Assembly (NCBI GenBank): GCA_043816005.1
Contig: JBDRIM010000005.1
Coordinates: forward strand, 1 to 46,178
Direction: 5' to 3'
DNA from: Candidatus Micrarchaeota archaeon
Lineage (GTDB): Archaea > Micrarchaeota > Micrarchaeia > Anstonellales > Bilamarchaeaceae
Length of the DNA: 46,178 bases
A program made the translations under genes and the position numbers. The first letter of the stretch is position 1. The number at the start of each line of letters is the position of its first letter. Below are positions 14,379-43,267 of this stretch, piece after piece. The notes under the pieces are model-generated. The model was not told the DNA's origin, did not search any database, and saw only the letters and a program-made list of their open reading frames with translations.

Positions 14379-14870
14379 CTACTCAAAATTTAATCTAGCG
14401 AATTTCATGAATTTTGGTTCTTCTCCGTCAACAATCGCAATTGCCAATTCTTTTCGCAATCTTCCGGCTGTTTCCAAAGATGGGGTTAACGTTTCAACAG
14501 ACGCTTTCCAGGTTTTTGGAACAACTTCGATAAGATAATAAGTTTTATCTTCTCCAGGACGCACGCCTTTGCGATGAAGTCGTAAAAATGAAGTGCCATC
14601 TAAACTTGGCCTAACAATATATCCTCGGTCACGAAGATATTTTATTACATGATATTTTTCAGCACAAAGTTTATCTTTTTTTGCAGCGTACTGTAAAAGT
14701 TCATCTTTTGGAACTGGTAATACACCACGATCTGCAAAATAAGCTGCCTCGAGAAATGTTATTTTTGTCTCGTTTTCGTCTTCAACACCTGCACCAAGGC
14801 TTCTGAGCTTAAGTATAAGTGATTTTTGTCTTATTATGAGAAAATCATCTGTAAATTCAATTTCTTTCAT
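14379..14870 (-). CDS. endA: tRNA-splicing endonuclease subunit, probably structural (non-catalytic)
   Basis: True start MKEIEF at 14870. Motifs FLEAAY, YLRDRGYIVR, RLRKELAIAIVD. Catalytic Tyr and His positions read H and K. Confidence 0.8.
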   Translation of the reverse strand: MKEIEFTDDFLIIRQKSLILKLRSLGAGVEDENETKITFLEAAYFADRGVLPVPKDELLQYAAKKDKLCAEKYHVIKYLRDRGYIVRPSLDGTSFLRLHRKGVRPGEDKTYYLIEVVPKTWKASVETLTPSLETAGRLRKELAIAIVDGEEPKFMKFARLNFE

Positions 14871-23278: not shown

Positions 23279-23392
23279 GCAGGAGTAGCGAAGCGGTCAA
23301 ACGTGATAGACTCAAGATCGTTCCCTTTCCAAATGGGGTTTGGGAAATCTATTGGCTCAGCGCCTTCGAAGGTTCAAATCCTTCCTCCTGCA
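23279..23392 (+). tRNA. tRNA-Leu(CAA) with a 30-nt intron at 37/38 (23317-23346)
   Basis: Acceptor stem GCAGGAG/CTCCTGC-A; anticodon stem ATAGA/TCTAT; CAA at 23313-23315; long variable arm; GGTTCAAATCC T-arm; CTCA/TGGG central helix. No encoded CCA. Confidence 0.93.
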
Positions 23393-38150: not shown

Positions 38151-38171
38151 TTTGGATACCAAAACAAAAAA

Positions 38172-38278
38172 TGCTCCGTCAGGGATTTGAACCCTGGTCG
38201 ATGGAGTGAAAGTCCACTATCCGTAGCCCACTTACAATATAAAATTGTCAGTGATTGACCGGTCTAGACGAACGGAGC
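38172..38278 (-). tRNA. tRNA-Glu(TTC) with a 32-nt D-loop intron at 21/22 (38223-38254)
   Basis: Minus strand: GCTCCGT/ACGGAGC-A acceptor; GTGGA-CTTTCAC-TCCAT anticodon arm; CAGGG-TTCAAAT-CCCTG T-arm; BHB GGTC-AA^T-CACT...AGTG-GGCT-AC^G. Confidence 0.92.
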
Positions 38279-38877
38279 GAAATAAACCTATTTTTATGGT
38301 ATGTATTTCTAAAGCCGATTTCTTTATAATATCGATAGATAAGAGATTTCTGGCCAATATAGGTCTGGCCAACCTCATCTTTCCTAATAGACCAGGCGGC
38401 TATTTTATAGTTTAACACCCCCATGGCTTTAGAAAAAGATTCTCTCAGTTTTGGAATTCTGCACTTGAACCATATGTAGGGATAGTCCCTCCCGGTAATG
38501 GGGCATACAGAACCGTCAGTATCAATTAAGCCCCGAATACACGCCCGTAGATATTTTTTAGAACCAAAAACCCATGAGGGGATTTCCACATTATTTACGA
38601 CCTTATTTCCAGTTGGAAAGCCCAGTTCATTAAGTTTTGAAGCAGTACTTTTAGTTTGACTATATATTTGTACTGCGTTCAGCCAGTGTCTTTTTATTTT
38701 AAATTTTGCAGATAAGGTCGTTTCTAACAATGGTTTCACATAATGGACCAAATAGTTGAAATCGTGTTTTAAGTGACCAGTAACGACAATTTGCACAACA
38801 CCATGTTGTTCATTAGCATAGATACTGCCGTCACCAAGAAATATCCCTAATATTTCTGCAAGCTTCTCCTTATTCAT
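38248..38877 (-). CDS. Free-standing two-motif LAGLIDADG homing endonuclease
   Basis: LAEILGIFLGDG and IRGLIDTDG, both with the acidic catalytic residue. ATG at 38877 lies about 30 nt below a TTTATAAA box. The 3' end overlaps tRNA-Glu. Confidence 0.88.
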   Translation of the reverse strand: MNKEKLAEILGIFLGDGSIYANEQHGVVQIVVTGHLKHDFNYLVHYVKPLLETTLSAKFKIKRHWLNAVQIYSQTKSTASKLNELGFPTGNKVVNNVEIPSWVFGSKKYLRACIRGLIDTDGSVCPITGRDYPYIWFKCRIPKLRESFSKAMGVLNYKIAAWSIRKDEVGQTYIGQKSLIYRYYKEIGFRNTYHKNRFISLRSSRPVNH

Positions 38878-38965
38878 ACTAACCAAAATAAATGACACAA
38901 CGACCGTTTATAAATAATATTCGACACCGTATTTCCGCAGATAAACGGGACACACAGAACGAGAT

Positions 38966-39535
38966 TTATTGTAAACATTGCATTATATCAGCTTGCACTG
39001 AGACTATGTCTTTTCGAGCATCAATTTTATGCCAACTTGGTGTTAAAAATCTTTCTTCAAAGAGTTTTAGGAAGGCAGAACGCACTTTACTGAGGTAAAA
39101 CGCATTTTCTTCATATCTATCAAGCTTTTTTTGCTGTGATTTTCTGGCTTGTGAAGTTTTTTCATCAATGTCAAGCAAAACCACCATATCTGGTTTTAGA
39201 AATTTTCCTTCAACAAGCTTTTTAGCTTCCGTATAGGAAAAACTATCAAGCTCATATGCAATTGTAGAAAGTACATACCTATCGAGAATAACGTATTTGT
39301 TTTCAGTGAGTGCTTTTTTTATGTTTTTTTGGTCTTCCAGAATATCTGAAAGAAAAAGCATGAATAGTTCTTTTGGTTCGATTGAGATTTTTTTCTCTAA
39401 ATAGTCATTCAGAATTTTATTGTTTTTTGTAGGATATTTCATTACAACCGCATTGAGTTTCTCTTTGAGCAAACTAATCTGAGTGTCCTTACCACAGCCA
39501 TCAATACCTTCAAAAACAATTAGTTTACCAGTCAT
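38966..39535 (-). CDS. tmk: Thymidylate kinase
   Basis: FEGIDGCGKDTQ, ILDRYVLSTIAY, KPD. Confidence 0.92.
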   Translation of the reverse strand: MTGKLIVFEGIDGCGKDTQISLLKEKLNAVVMKYPTKNNKILNDYLEKKISIEPKELFMLFLSDILEDQKNIKKALTENKYVILDRYVLSTIAYELDSFSYTEAKKLVEGKFLKPDMVVLLDIDEKTSQARKSQQKKLDRYEENAFYLSKVRSAFLKLFEERFLTPSWHKIDARKDIVSVQADIMQCLQ

Positions 39536-39559
39536 GAAAATCAACAGAAAAATAAAAAA

Positions 39560-42500
39560 TTACTTTTTAGTAGGTTTCTTAGCCATGTGACCAAGAACGA
39601 TGTAAGCGAATACACCAACTAATAAAAGCACTATTGGAATCCAGATAAAGTTAACTATATCAGCCAGAACTTGCTTACCTGGTTCACCACCTGGTGATTT
39701 TGCCAGAGCAACAAGATTGGTTGTCTTTATCACCTGACCATCTTTAAGTAAAGCAACTTGGTAGATACCTTCATTGATAAGTGGCACACCAAGTTTGCCG
39801 TCCTGATCTGTTTTACCAGTGGTTACTTTGCCAGTTGGATCAGTTAACTGATAATCACAGAAAGAACATGGTGTTTGGTCTTGTGTGAAATCACAGTTCT
39901 TCTCTTCGCCTACTTTACCTGATTCGCAAATTACATCACCAATAAAACAAATATTGTTGATACAATCACCGATAGGACAAATGGGGCATCCTTCTTCAGG
40001 ACCGCATTGGTATAGTGTAATTGTGTGATTTTTTATTTCACCACAACCAACAAGAGGTTTGCATGAACCATCAACACAAATTGAATCATCAGCACAATCA
40101 GTATCGATAGTACATCCTGGTTTTGTTTTCTGAGTACATACGTGTTCAGTACACACTTCGTTAGTACCACACATGCTATCAGAACAGCACTGGTATTCAA
40201 TGCATTGATGAGTAGTTACGAAACCACAAGCACATGGCACAGGAACACATTGATTATTAGAACATTTTTGATTTTCAGGACAATCAATATCAGTAACACA
40301 TTCGTATGTTACTGTAGTAACACATTCATCACAATCTTCTTCCAAGAAAGTTGTTGAATCAGAAAGATAACCAGATTTACCAGCATAAACTTGAAGTTCC
40401 TGGCCACATCCATCAAATTTTATTCTACCGTTGCTATCAGTTGTACCCAAATCTATTATACCATCAACAAATCTTGGAGTATATTGCTCATATTTGTTAT
40501 CCGTTAGTTGGGTGTTAGTAAGACTATTTTCAGAGTTAGGATAGTCTGCCGTTAGACTGTTTTCGGAATTTGGATATGCTGAGTCTGTTGGATTGTTTTC
40601 AGTGTTTAGATTGACGGAATTATCTATGATGTAATTCTCAGAATTCATATTTGGTGATGTGTCTGGTAGGTAACTTTCAGAGTTTGGATAATTAGTTGTA
40701 ATATAATTCTCAGAATTTGGATATGCTGATGAGGCAGTAAGACTATTTTCAGAATTTAGATTTCCTGAATAGTAGGAGATATACGAGTAAGTGTTTGGAT
40801 AGGTAGATACACTTGTCAAAACAACTCTAACCCCAGAAACTGGATCTCCACCACTTGTCACAGTGATAACATTTTCATCGCATGAACTAGTGACTTCGAT
40901 AGACAATGAGGGTGTATCATAAGTCTTACCATTATCATCATCGGTAACATCAGCCTCAGCAGCTGCTTCAGCAAAATAGGAATATGTACTGTGCACACTA
41001 AGAAGTGAGAAATTAAAACTATCTGCACTTTCGTTCTGAGTTGCATTGTTCGTAAGATCAATCCAATCAGAGCCATTCCATTCATATGGTACAATAGATG
41101 CTTCTGTAAGGCCAGACGAATTGTAATACATTGTAAAGTTTATTGGAATTGTTGTGTTTTTTGTACCTGACGATGTTTGGTTAGATAGAACATCATAGAA
41201 TGATATGTTTGCACTTTCACCAGTCCAACTCCCAGTTGGAGCAGTAGAAATCAAATTTTCTGCATCAAATATAAGATTATAATCATAGACAATGTTTGAA
41301 AGGTTGGCTGAGATTACGGTGCCATTAAGCGAAAGACGGTCCAGCATAACTCCAGATGTTGAATTCAAGAGTCTAAGATCATAATAGTGCTGACATTGTG
41401 GATAACTTATATTTTGCGATGGATTTGTATAGCTAGTTATGTTGGTTAATGTAATATTTGTAGAATCAGATATATAGATACTTTCATTTGCACCCGTTAT
41501 CACAAGATTTGTAAAATTACTATCTAATACATAGTCAGTAAGATAAGCAATTGATATGCCTGTTACATTCGTATTCGTTATAGAAAATCGTGAAAGGTTA
41601 TTAGATTGACCCGAAAGATAGAAACCATAAACATCAGTTGATCGGTATATGTATTCATCTTCCTTACAATCAAAGGTTGGAGAAGCGACTGAGACCGGAG
41701 TATAAAGATAACCAAGTGATGATGATGCAAAACGAATTTCAGTTGGTCTGTCATCCATTGTCGATGGAAGAGAACTGGCGGTTCCATCATAAGTAAGATT
41801 ATTCATATCAAAAACAAAATCACTTGAATCATGAACCTGTACAGATCTACGAAAATTATTATAGAATGTATTGTTTCTTACTGTTGAACTTGAACCAAAT
41901 GCACCTGTAATATACAAACCTTGGTAATTAGATTGAATTTTATTATTAGAGAGATTAAGAGTAACATTATCCCCTAACCCAGCAAGAAAGATACCAGCAC
42001 CAGCATCAGAAGTATAGAGATAATTACCAATAACAGAATTTGTTATAGTGAATGCAGTTTGCGAAGGAGGATAAGAAAGGTAATTAGTGATATCGCTAGC
42101 TTCGCCGTCTATATAGGAAAGAACTTCTGCAGCTGAATTGTTGATGGTTACATTGTGGATTGTTACATTACCAGTTTGATTGAAAAAGAAGATTGGTAAG
42201 GATTCATATTCAAAAGACATATTAGCAATTGTTACATTCTTATTGCAGTTGAAAAGCCAAATTACCCCCACACCAGAAGTAAAGGACATGGTTGATTGAC
42301 AATCGTCATCATAGTAAAGAGTTTCACCGTCAACTGTATTGGACGTGTCAATATCTAGATTATTATTCCTTACCCATAGGTCAGAACCAAGATGAGCATT
42401 TTGATAATTATTAGTTAGGTTAGTGAAGGTTAATGTTTGATTAACTCCATCTCTCAGATAAAGACCAATATGTGAATAGGTAGCTGTGTTTCTAGAAAAG

Positions 42501-43267
42501 TTAGTAAAATTACCATTTATACTGAAACCAACATCAGAATTGTTTACGGTGTTATTGAAGAAAGTAGTACCGTTTGTGTTTATATCATTTACAAAACCAG
42601 CATAAACTTGCTGTGCAGATGAATTTGTTATTTTATTTTGATTTGAGTAACCAGTGAGGAAATAACCGCCAGCACCCAGTGTAAATGTAAGATTTGTTGA
42701 ATTTGTATTAGTCATGTTATTTCCATAAAAACCATATGAATTAGAATAATTGTAGTTGGTGAAAGATAAATTAGTGAATGCACAATTTGAGACATTATTT
42801 GCGTATACCCCATTTGTACTTGATGCAGTAAAATTTGTGAATGCTAAATTTGAAAGTGCGCAGGTAGCAGCAGGCGTAACATTGTTTAGATAAATGCCGT
42901 AAGAGTAGCTTTCGTTAAAATTAGTGAAAGAAATATTGTCAAGAGTGAGGGTGGATGCAGTATTGTTAACATAGACACCATAGCGACTGTTGTTTATATT
43001 ACCATTAATAATAGTGTGACCAGCAGAAGAATTAACATATATTGCAATTGAGGTATCACTATTGTTGGCATTTGAAATTGTGAAACCTGCCATATTCAAG
43101 TACATCCCAGCGGACATATTGAAACATATCTCATAACCAGTTGCATCAATATCAGTAGTAAGACTATTTATACTCTCGGTGATAGTGCCGCACGTAGCAA
43201 AATATCCATCAGCATGCAAACTCGAAACAAATAACAGAATAGCCAGAAAAATGATATACCTGTTCAT
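39560..43267 (-). CDS. 1235-aa surface glycoprotein: right-handed beta-helix (NosD/CASH-like), NSEN repeats, Cys-rich repeats, C-terminal TM anchor
   Basis: Signal peptide; N/T/S-rich parallel beta-helix pattern with many N-x-S/T sequons; C.TD.DC....C....C repeats; TM followed by a basic tail. Confidence 0.85.
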   Translation of the reverse strand: MNRYIIFLAILLFVSSLHADGYFATCGTITESINSLTTDIDATGYEICFNMSAGMYLNMAGFTISNANNSDTSIAIYVNSSAGHTIINGNINNSRYGVYVNNTASTLTLDNISFTNFNESYSYGIYLNNVTPAATCALSNLAFTNFTASSTNGVYANNVSNCAFTNLSFTNYNYSNSYGFYGNNMTNTNSTNLTFTLGAGGYFLTGYSNQNKITNSSAQQVYAGFVNDINTNGTTFFNNTVNNSDVGFSINGNFTNFSRNTATYSHIGLYLRDGVNQTLTFTNLTNNYQNAHLGSDLWVRNNNLDIDTSNTVDGETLYYDDDCQSTMSFTSGVGVIWLFNCNKNVTIANMSFEYESLPIFFFNQTGNVTIHNVTINNSAAEVLSYIDGEASDITNYLSYPPSQTAFTITNSVIGNYLYTSDAGAGIFLAGLGDNVTLNLSNNKIQSNYQGLYITGAFGSSSTVRNNTFYNNFRRSVQVHDSSDFVFDMNNLTYDGTASSLPSTMDDRPTEIRFASSSLGYLYTPVSVASPTFDCKEDEYIYRSTDVYGFYLSGQSNNLSRFSITNTNVTGISIAYLTDYVLDSNFTNLVITGANESIYISDSTNITLTNITSYTNPSQNISYPQCQHYYDLRLLNSTSGVMLDRLSLNGTVISANLSNIVYDYNLIFDAENLISTAPTGSWTGESANISFYDVLSNQTSSGTKNTTIPINFTMYYNSSGLTEASIVPYEWNGSDWIDLTNNATQNESADSFNFSLLSVHSTYSYFAEAAAEADVTDDDNGKTYDTPSLSIEVTSSCDENVITVTSGGDPVSGVRVVLTSVSTYPNTYSYISYYSGNLNSENSLTASSAYPNSENYITTNYPNSESYLPDTSPNMNSENYIIDNSVNLNTENNPTDSAYPNSENSLTADYPNSENSLTNTQLTDNKYEQYTPRFVDGIIDLGTTDSNGRIKFDGCGQELQVYAGKSGYLSDSTTFLEEDCDECVTTVTYECVTDIDCPENQKCSNNQCVPVPCACGFVTTHQCIEYQCCSDSMCGTNEVCTEHVCTQKTKPGCTIDTDCADDSICVDGSCKPLVGCGEIKNHTITLYQCGPEEGCPICPIGDCINNICFIGDVICESGKVGEEKNCDFTQDQTPCSFCDYQLTDPTGKVTTGKTDQDGKLGVPLINEGIYQVALLKDGQVIKTTNLVALAKSPGGEPGKQVLADIVNFIWIPIVLLLVGVFAYIVLGHMAKKPTKK

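Follow-up and report, generated by a model that had tools for sequence, protein, structure and literature searches.

An apparently mobile LAGLIDADG endonuclease gene abutting a tRNA-Glu gene in a micrarchaeal genome, and its possible partnership with a D-loop intron

Why does the gene for a homing endonuclease end inside the intron of a tRNA gene, and are the two linked by anything beyond their position? The question is raised by a 46,178-nucleotide (nt) stretch of DNA from a Candidatus Micrarchaeota archaeon (contig JBDRIM010000005.1 of GenBank assembly GCA_043816005.1; the whole stretch is referred to here as the window), in which the reading frame of a free-standing LAGLIDADG gene crosses the 5' exon of a gene for tRNA-Glu(UUC) and stops within an intron in the tRNA D-loop. 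Comparison with other DPANN archaea revealed that related endonuclease genes mostly lie beside tRNA-Glu or tRNA-Gln genes and that a D-loop intron is far more frequent in the tRNAs next to them than in other tRNAs of the same isotypes. On balance, we favor an account in which the endonuclease gene is a mobile cassette inserted at tRNA nt 1 and the D-loop intron is its evolutionary partner through collaborative homing.

Anatomy of the endonuclease-tRNA junction

The elements of the locus, in the order in which they are read, are the following.

38966..39544, minus strand: thymidylate kinase gene tmk, the native upstream neighbor of tRNA-Glu (Pfam Thymidylate_kin, E 1.2e-28)
38907..38916, minus strand: TATA-like AT-rich box about 34 nt upstream from the endonuclease ATG, possibly a promoter of the cassette to judge from its sequence
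38248..38877, minus strand: LAGLIDADG homing endonuclease gene, free-standing and single-chain (list of open reading frames, Pfam, homologs, structure model)
38824..38853, minus strand: LAGLIDADG motif 1, residues 9-18 (G15, D16, and G17 invariant in 16 aligned members)
38509..38535, minus strand: LAGLIDADG motif 2, residues 115-123, RGLIDTDGS (R115-G122 invariant in 16 aligned members)
38172..38278, minus strand: tRNA-Glu(UUC) gene, 107 nt including the discriminator (cloverleaf parse, partial Rfam match, genus orthologs)
38255..38278, minus strand: tRNA 5' exon, nt 1-24, comprising the acceptor strand, the D-stem 5' strand, and D-loop (intron-less alleles)
38223..38254, minus strand: predicted 32-nt bulge-helix-bulge intron in the D-loop, tRNA nt 25-56, holding the endonuclease stop at 38250..38248 (intron-less alleles)
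38172..38222, minus strand: tRNA 3' exon, nt 57-107 (intron-less alleles, cloverleaf parse)
38166..38171, minus strand: T-run right after the discriminator, by its sequence a likely archaeal terminator

The endonuclease open reading frame (ORF) runs from an ATG at 38877 to a TGA at 38250..38248 and comprises 209 codons plus the stop; a GTG in frame at 38898 would add 7 residues (216 amino acids [aa]), but the ATG is favored, because close homologs begin two codons before its position. The protein has 117 homologs in our searches and matches Pfam LAGLIDADG_3 in two stretches (E 2.6e-7), and both of its LAGLIDADG motifs carry the conserved acidic residues, with D119-T120-D121-G122 invariant in 16 sequences. 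An AlphaFold model (predicted local distance difference test score [pLDDT], 93.2; predicted template modeling score, 0.90) gives a two-domain alpha-beta-beta-alpha-beta-beta-alpha fold, for which Foldseek returned PI-PfuI, I-Tsp061I, and I-DmoI (E 1e-10 to 8e-9; template modeling [TM] scores, 0.67-0.77), the resemblance to I-DmoI and I-Tsp061I lying at TM scores of 0.74-0.77. A single-sequence search of the Protein Data Bank with the protein gave no match at E 0.01 or better, and a profile search gave marginal matches only, to I-DmoI (E 0.002-0.009) and to inteins. Taken together, the motifs, the predicted fold, and the mobility pattern described below identify the product as a predicted single-chain LAGLIDADG homing endonuclease.

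Two side observations concern the homologs of this protein. P0003, which is 83% identical to it, carries the public name "tRNA-splicing ligase RtcB" and is apparently a misannotated LAGLIDADG endonuclease. About half of the family (e.g., P0004, P0007, P0034, and P0064) reaches some 300 aa through an N-terminal extension of about 90 aa, for which the only match is a weak one to HTH_11 (E 0.005, under the Pfam cutoff); the clade of the window's protein is without this extension.

The tRNA-Glu(UUC) gene has a perfect 7-bp acceptor stem, its anticodon UUC at 38210..38208, and no encoded CCA. ARAGORN found no tRNA anywhere in the window, and Rfam did not detect this tRNA at its gathering score; with the Rfam model, the alignment was confined to the sequence 3' of the D-arm (27.1 bits, E 9e-4). 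The third base of endonuclease codon 200 is tRNA nt 1, and residues 201-209, at the end of a C terminus that reads ...SLRSSRPVNH, are encoded wholly by the 5' exon and 7 nt of the intron, so that the ORF overlaps the first 24 nt of the tRNA and then enters the intron, whose nt 5-7 (tRNA nt 29-31) form the stop codon. The initial annotation of this DNA had described exactly this path, and the sequence bears it out codon by codon; it was also right that without the intron the frame would cross the whole tRNA, since removing the intron in silico adds 39 codons that extend through the tRNA and beyond.

What the annotation made of the overlap and of the stop needs qualification. Among 17 endonuclease-free alleles of the genus with tmk immediately upstream, tmk itself ends at a TAG at tRNA nt 13-15 in 3, overlaps the tRNA by 1 nt in 1, abuts tRNA nt 1 in 2, and ends 1-27 nt upstream in the other 11. 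Since tmk also does so without any endonuclease, genes upstream from tRNA-Glu tend to run into the tRNA; the overlap between ORF and tRNA therefore appears, from these alleles, to be ordinary in itself, and the suggestion that it is special to the endonuclease falls away. Within the endonuclease family, 55 of the 62 cleanly parsed ORFs end inside the tRNA, 32 at a TAG at nt 13-15 and 15 at nt 8-10, so that 47 of 62 use one of these two 5'-exon stops. The clade to which the window's gene belongs enters the tRNA in another reading frame, misses these usual TAG stops, and finds its first in-frame stop in the intron. Residues 201-209 have a mean pLDDT of 52 (versus 91-98 in other parts of the model), and this tail begins only a few residues past the last conserved protein motif; the provision of the stop by the intron, although true here, is thus best read as a frame accident of the clade, in which ORF length is now tied to the intron.

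Such crowding raises the possibility that endonuclease and tRNA are incidental neighbors, i.e., that, as the genome was compacted, an endonuclease gene came by chance to lie against a tRNA with one of the many introns of this lineage, with neither the overlap nor the intron linked to the enzyme. The behavior of tmk in endonuclease-free relatives agrees with this, as does the wealth of tRNA introns in the genome, and we return to it with the comparative data. AT-rich boxes inside the endonuclease gene, at about -32..-23 and -20..-9, might serve as a tRNA promoter, although their spacing is not decisive. Cotranscription of the two genes is plausible, and so is loss of the endonuclease stop codon through processing by RNase P or the splicing endonuclease, but the same argument applies equally to tmk in the endonuclease-free relatives. 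The genome contains a full-length candidate for a divergent archaeal RNase P RNA (G000:C61:10378-10687, plus strand; 59.7 bits versus a cutoff of 84).

Insertion at tRNA nucleotide 1 and distribution of the endonuclease family

The endonuclease cassette sits between tmk and tRNA-Glu. From tmk to tRNA nt 1 the distance is 683-694 nt in the three endonuclease-bearing alleles of the genus, versus -15 to +27 nt in the 17 endonuclease-free alleles, and in the carriers the gap is filled by the ORF and a spacer of 78-89 nt, an intergenic region that contains the AT-rich box in all three. Upstream from this box, a motif CGCGGAAAT..GGTG-like is conserved in the window (38920-38950, minus strand) and at loci L047 and L048; it could be part of a cassette promoter or mark the left end of the cassette. 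Of 28 genomes sampled from the genus, only 3 yielded an ortholog, namely, the genome of the window (G000), G288 (85% identity), and G289 (83%). Among 401 sampled genomes of the phylum, the best match elsewhere is 38% identical, and 47 contain any LAGLIDADG relative. An 850-nt tmk-tRNA gap at locus L067 was considered as a possible endonuclease remnant and rejected, as it holds an unrelated ORF of 226 aa. Parts of the stretch are also present in four groundwater DNA sequencing runs, and none of the runs listed for it is recorded as RNA; one diverged contig (74 differences in 447 nt) spans the 5' part of the tRNA and the 3' half of the endonuclease gene, and none of the run contigs, all of which are short, bridges an endonuclease-free or intron-free form.

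Did the cassette bring tRNA sequence with it? The mobile endonuclease ORFs of fungal mitochondria work by gene-end replacement and leave a displaced stump of the target upstream, and an element of this kind, inserted within the tRNA and supplying its own tRNA or the 5' part of one, would also produce the tight, conserved junction between ORF and tRNA that is seen here. However, local alignment detected no displaced tRNA stump in the three tmk-endonuclease spacers (p 0.70-0.93 against shuffles). Several endonuclease-free alleles of the genus have exactly the same 24-nt 5' exon, two of them match the 3' exon at 96% identity, and the tRNAs next to the nearest endonuclease relatives, which belong to another phylum, differ from that of the window. 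These comparisons suggest that the tRNA exons are native to the genus and were not imported with the endonuclease, which makes a replacement cassette improbable. They also dispose of part of the initial proposal, according to which the endonuclease and the intron-bearing 5' half of the tRNA travel as one unit: the 5' half appears to be resident, and only the link between endonuclease and intron, discussed in the next section, survives.

Beyond the genus, the family comprises 304 relatives in species-representative genomes. We examined the best 80 of these loci and could place a tRNA at the ORF end in 69; the remaining 11, like 8 of 30 loci from the phylum, were not parsed by the script, and several of these visibly hold multi-intron tRNAs. 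At 62 of the 80 examined loci the endonuclease gene lies cleanly beside a gene for tRNA-Glu (UUC or CUC) or tRNA-Gln (UUG or CUG), a preference that strongly disfavors incidental neighbors as the explanation for the adjacency, and the cassette boundary at tRNA nt 1 is kept throughout the family. Proteins at 50-59% identity to that of the window come from metagenomes and other DPANN phyla. In a tree of 69 sequences, the window's protein groups with Aenigmatarchaeota sequences (Shimodaira-Hasegawa-like approximate likelihood ratio test [SH-aLRT] support, 99), and every member of the enclosing 22-member clade (SH-aLRT, 99) is found beside tRNA-Glu. Clades of the tree mix Iainarchaeota, Woesearchaeota, Pacearchaeota, Nanoarchaeota, Aenigmatarchaeota, and Micrarchaeota, whereas the isotype of the adjoining tRNA changes just three times, as expected for sequence-specific targeting; such isotype fidelity again argues against chance neighbors. 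The patchy presence of the gene and the discordance between its phylogeny and that of its hosts indicate that it is mobile, as far as sequence comparison can tell.

The opposite view, that the family is a domesticated LAGLIDADG protein which has lost its mobility and now has a function in the cell, such as in the expression of tRNA or the maturation of RNA, would agree with the good conservation of catalytic motifs and length across phyla and with the N-terminal domain of many members and its subthreshold HTH_11 match. Against it stand the patchiness within genus and phylum, the mixing of phyla in the tree, and the existence of decayed remnants beside intron-bearing tRNAs, and we regard it as the least probable of the explanations considered here.

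Distant LAGLIDADG genes of the window's phylum likewise abut tRNA genes, in their case for tRNA-Thr, -Ala, -Gly, and -Val. The genome itself contains a second free-standing LAGLIDADG ORF (G000:C64:37237-37998, minus strand; 253 codons, 29% identical to that of the window), which stops at a TAG formed by nt 8-10 of a tRNA with the acceptor sequence GGGCTCG...; this tRNA, in the roughly 260 nt that follow the ORF, has several introns, one of which apparently adjoins the T-arm.

The D-loop intron and its association with the endonuclease

Of 40 genomes of the genus searched with the 107-nt gene, 35 yielded the tRNA-Glu. Intron-less alleles (e.g., in G405, G262, G406, G342, and G164) join nt 24 straight to nt 57, and because they unite nt 1-24 with nt 57-107, the intron is exactly nt 25-56, with no sliding ambiguity. 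Its proposed structure has a central 4-bp helix between GGUC (nt 19-22) and GGCU (nt 51-54), 3-nt bulges cut after the second base (AA^U and AC^G), and an inner helix, CACU/AGUG; the outer helix is weak (two of three pairs), which makes this a relaxed bulge-helix-bulge form. Across 55 distinct D-loop introns of tRNA-Glu and tRNA-Gln genes, 41 have all four central pairs and at least three of the four inner pairs, whereas 200 shuffles gave 7.6 on average and never more than 15. The paired bases vary between introns (TTCT/AGAA, CTCC/GGAG, AATT/AATT), i.e., the helices covary, and 42 of the 55 have GGYCAA, or CGGYCA/CGGTTA shifted by one base, just before the 5' splice site. Candidate splicing enzymes are encoded in the genome, in frames of 403 and 333 aa that match PF01974:

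G000:C64:47933-48424, plus strand: tRNA-splicing endonuclease domains, two matches in one 403-aa frame (PF01974)
Window 14421-14663, minus strand: tRNA-splicing endonuclease domain in a 333-aa open frame (PF01974)

With its precise absence from other alleles, its pairing, and these splicing endonuclease genes, the element is well described as a predicted archaeal bulge-helix-bulge intron.

Within the genus, the D-loop intron is present in all three endonuclease-bearing alleles and in none of 21 endonuclease-free alleles, many of which have anticodon-loop introns of 52-221 nt instead. For a broader view, 50 of 79 possible endonuclease-bearing genomes were sampled, and Glu and Gln tRNA genes were located by an anticodon-loop plus T-arm pattern and taken with about 1.3 kb of upstream sequence. 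A tRNA was counted as endonuclease adjacent when a family endonuclease (tblastn E <=1e-20) ended between -120 and +150 nt of it on the same strand, and as intron bearing when its D-loop was longer than 12 nt; about 14 pattern matches with a 5-nt variable region, likely tRNA-Pro or chance, were dropped. The 106 distinct genes that were parsed fall into four classes.

Endonuclease-adjacent Glu/Gln tRNAs: n = 35, D-loop intron in 22
Endonuclease-free Glu/Gln tRNAs: n = 64, D-loop intron in 8
tRNAs with a weak endonuclease remnant: n = 3, D-loop intron in 2
tRNAs with too little upstream DNA for scoring: n = 4, D-loop intron in 1

The difference between the first two classes corresponds to an odds ratio of 11.8 (Fisher p 4e-7) and is seen for both isotypes (adjacent versus free, 13/15 versus 2/28 for Glu and 9/20 versus 6/36 for Gln). 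It holds within genomes as well: in the 23 genomes with both classes, intron frequency was higher in the adjacent genes in 12, lower in none, and tied in 11 (sign test p 5e-4). Each of the eight endonuclease-free tRNAs with the intron shares its genome with a Glu or Gln gene that is both endonuclease adjacent and intron bearing, whereas in genomes whose endonuclease-adjacent genes are intron-less, none of 14 endonuclease-free genes has the intron (counted from the paired-genome table). The co-occurrence of intron and endonuclease, named as a check in the initial annotation, is thus upheld in the genus and in the paired comparison, with exceptions in both directions across the census. These data support an evolutionary link, seen at the level of sequence, between the endonuclease family and a D-loop intron in precisely this position. 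Together with the adjacency and isotype fidelity described above, they make it very improbable that endonuclease and intron are merely incidental neighbors.

Collaborative homing would account for such a link as follows. An endonuclease cassette of about 690 bp has inserted between tmk and tRNA-Glu(UUC), flush with tRNA nt 1; as the cassette itself lacks a stop codon, its ORF ends at the first in-frame stop within the tRNA. The enzyme, which appears to represent a tRNA-Glu-specific clade of a DPANN-wide family aimed at tRNA-Glu and tRNA-Gln genes, would cut the intron-less tRNA gene at or near the junction of D-loop and D-stem. The 32-nt ORF-less intron, 24 bp downstream from the cassette, would be its evolutionary partner, since by splitting the cut site it would protect the carrier allele while leaving the mature tRNA unchanged. 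Repair of the break would copy the intron, plus the nearby endonuclease gene where upstream homology allows, and repair that copies the intron alone would account for the endonuclease-free intron-bearing paralogs. We consider collaborative homing the simplest fit because the ORF-less intron has a fixed site 24 bp away, the endonuclease is faithful to tRNA isotype, and intron-only paralogs are confined to genomes that have endonuclease plus intron.

The explanation that competes most seriously with collaborative homing, although we think it unlikely, is that the intron is a hitchhiker. As a rule, a homing endonuclease gene occupies the site that its product cleaves; the enzyme would then recognize the 5' end of the tRNA, its own insertion at nt 1 would disrupt that site, and the intron would give no immunity but, being only 24 bp away, would be dragged along in the co-conversion tract and so become overrepresented near the endonuclease. 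The conserved cassette boundary at tRNA nt 1 speaks for such hitchhiking, as do the endonuclease-adjacent tRNAs that do without an intron and the unrelated intron sequences found among distant endonuclease relatives. On the other hand, the upstream half of the recognition site would then consist of nonconserved flanking sequence (tmk here, other genes elsewhere). Hitchhiking also predicts scattered intron positions near the 5' end, whereas the intron occupies one fixed Glu/Gln site across phyla, and cleavage at the intron site would agree with the finding that endonuclease-free intron-bearing paralogs are restricted to genomes in which another such tRNA gene has both endonuclease and intron.

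An exploratory comparison of the putative target site by position weights, in which some junctions were misplaced, gave a mixed result. The spliced junctions of endonuclease-adjacent tRNA-Glu genes match the endonuclease-free consensus (p 0.6) and the sites of endonuclease-adjacent, intron-less tRNA-Gln genes deviate from it (p 0.007), but the spliced junctions of intron-bearing tRNA-Gln genes, partly because of misplaced junctions, deviate as well (p 0.03). This is suggestive and fits collaborative homing in part, the last of these values being a point against it.

Several further observations weigh against the partnership of endonuclease and intron that we favor. The central helix of the intron is absent from single-sequence minimum-free-energy folds of both the pre-tRNA and the intron region, which give a hairpin with internal loops instead, so that the structure model rests on comparison. 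With respect to sequence, the intron is unlike those next to the nearest endonuclease relatives in other phyla, sharing with them the site and the pairing pattern; fast divergence and independent births at one site would both fit. The three carriers in the genus form one subclade (tmk identity among them is 79-83%, versus at most 64% to other genus members), which implies a single acquisition, and their co-occurrence of endonuclease and intron therefore counts as one event, as incidental neighbors would also have it. In the census, all controls came from genomes that have an endonuclease, genes whose anticodon loop holds an intron or whose T-loop is unusual were excluded, and related genomes are not independent of one another. 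Nor is the association complete: 13 of the 35 endonuclease-adjacent tRNAs are without a D-loop intron, which is thus not required, 8 of the 64 endonuclease-free tRNAs carry one, and the endonuclease tree shows 13 changes of intron state. Finally, the genome is rich in D-loop introns of other tRNAs that have no adjoining endonuclease.

A wider hypothesis, which we put forward only tentatively and consider less likely to be right than wrong, is that tRNA-targeting homing endonucleases drive the birth and spread of noncanonical tRNA introns in DPANN archaea. Repeated cutting at a single site in the D-loop would select for insertions removable by the splicing endonuclease, or would generate them as the breaks are repaired; such insertions would act as immunity devices and could be copied in trans, whether or not accompanied by the endonuclease gene, to paralogous or foreign genes for tRNA-Glu and tRNA-Gln. 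On this view, the unrelated sequences of introns that share one fixed site would represent independent births.

Genomic setting and comparison with known systems

Other tRNA genes of this genome are also heavily interrupted. The introns of different tRNAs in the genome and genus, at both anticodon-loop and D-loop positions, share modules (a palindromic CTTTTT..AAAAAG hairpin, CAAAAACTG, TTAGCAAG, and GTTTTGG), which we found on contigs C22, C24, C34, C40, C41, C43, C64, C78, and C85 of G000 and at loci L061-L075 and which have the look of an intron family in the process of spreading, or of a small RNA embedded in the introns. The Rfam tRNA model gave just 13 matches in the 1.26-Mb genome (86% completeness), whereas a loose scan for acceptor stem plus T-arm gave about 27 plausible tRNA genes, most with at least one intron of 30-250 nt; standard annotation would badly undercall tRNAs here. 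Three other features of the window may be mentioned.

23279-23392, plus strand: tRNA with a long variable arm and a 33-nt anticodon-loop insertion (Rfam tRNA, 48.5 bits), the only tRNA of the window that reaches the Rfam gathering score
32034-32288, plus strand: signal recognition particle RNA (bacterial large model, 61.7 bits versus a cutoff of 60)
39560-43267, minus strand: predicted surface protein of 1,235 aa (sequence features), with a signal-like N-terminal segment, very many N-x-S/T sites, Cys-rich repeats, and a C-terminal membrane anchor

These findings bear on how archaeal tRNA introns at noncanonical positions arise and spread. Because the enzyme family is named, the intron site is fixed, and alleles both with and without the intron exist in nature, the question of cooperation between endonuclease and intron becomes testable. 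If the partnership is real, it would extend collaborative homing from the group I introns of phages to cellular bulge-helix-bulge introns and would help to account for the heavily disrupted tRNA genes of DPANN archaea. On the practical side, standard tRNA finders miss tRNA-Glu(UUC), and annotators misname ORFs of this kind.

The closest parallel is F-CphI, a free-standing endonuclease encoded beside the intron-containing psbA gene of cyanophage S-PM2, for which collaborative homing was defined (PMC6083498). In both systems the endonuclease gene adjoins a gene with an ORF-less intron, and by analogy with the logic set out in that report, the intron would block self-cleavage and the endonuclease would mobilize the intron here too (PMC6083498). 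The co-occurrence of endonuclease and intron by which collaborative homing is recognized was found across genomes in our data, imperfect in both directions. The differences are that the host here is a cellular archaeon and not a phage, that the target is a tRNA gene, that the enzyme belongs to the LAGLIDADG family and is not Endo VII-like, that the 32-nt bulge-helix-bulge intron would be spliced by protein whereas the group I intron of psbA is self-splicing, and that the endonuclease ORF physically overlaps its presumed target.

A second precedent comes from trans homing in phage T4, where mobE is associated with the defunct I-TevIII intron (PMC2790892). There, as may be the case here, an endonuclease encoded outside the intron may mobilize flanking DNA together with an ORF-less intron, and its presence is patchy; that account concerns other enzyme families, a phage context, and group I introns (PMC2790892). 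With I-Tsp061I, I-DmoI, and PI-PfuI the window's protein shares the predicted fold and the two motifs with conserved acidic residues, at a sequence identity of only 14-19%, as well as an archaeal host with bulge-helix-bulge introns. These three enzymes are encoded inside rRNA introns or inteins, unlike the present ORF, which starts 599 nt upstream from tRNA nt 1 and has only its last 7 nt in the intron, so that the I-DmoI type of arrangement does not apply.

As for the intron, splicing endonucleases of broad specificity go together with disrupted tRNA genes in DPANN and ARMAN archaea (PMC5829648). The intron described here resembles those introns in its relaxed bulge-helix-bulge form, its noncanonical position, and its occurrence in a lineage with disrupted tRNA genes; in the passages of that work consulted here, the introns are not tied to homing endonuclease genes (PMC5829648). 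Our literature search, which did not extend to subscription journals, returned no account of LAGLIDADG genes that adjoin tRNA genes in archaea, nor any that connects such genes with bulge-helix-bulge introns. Free-standing homing endonucleases, collaborative and trans homing, and noncanonical archaeal tRNA introns are each known from these earlier systems, and it is their combination that, within the scope of this search, is new.

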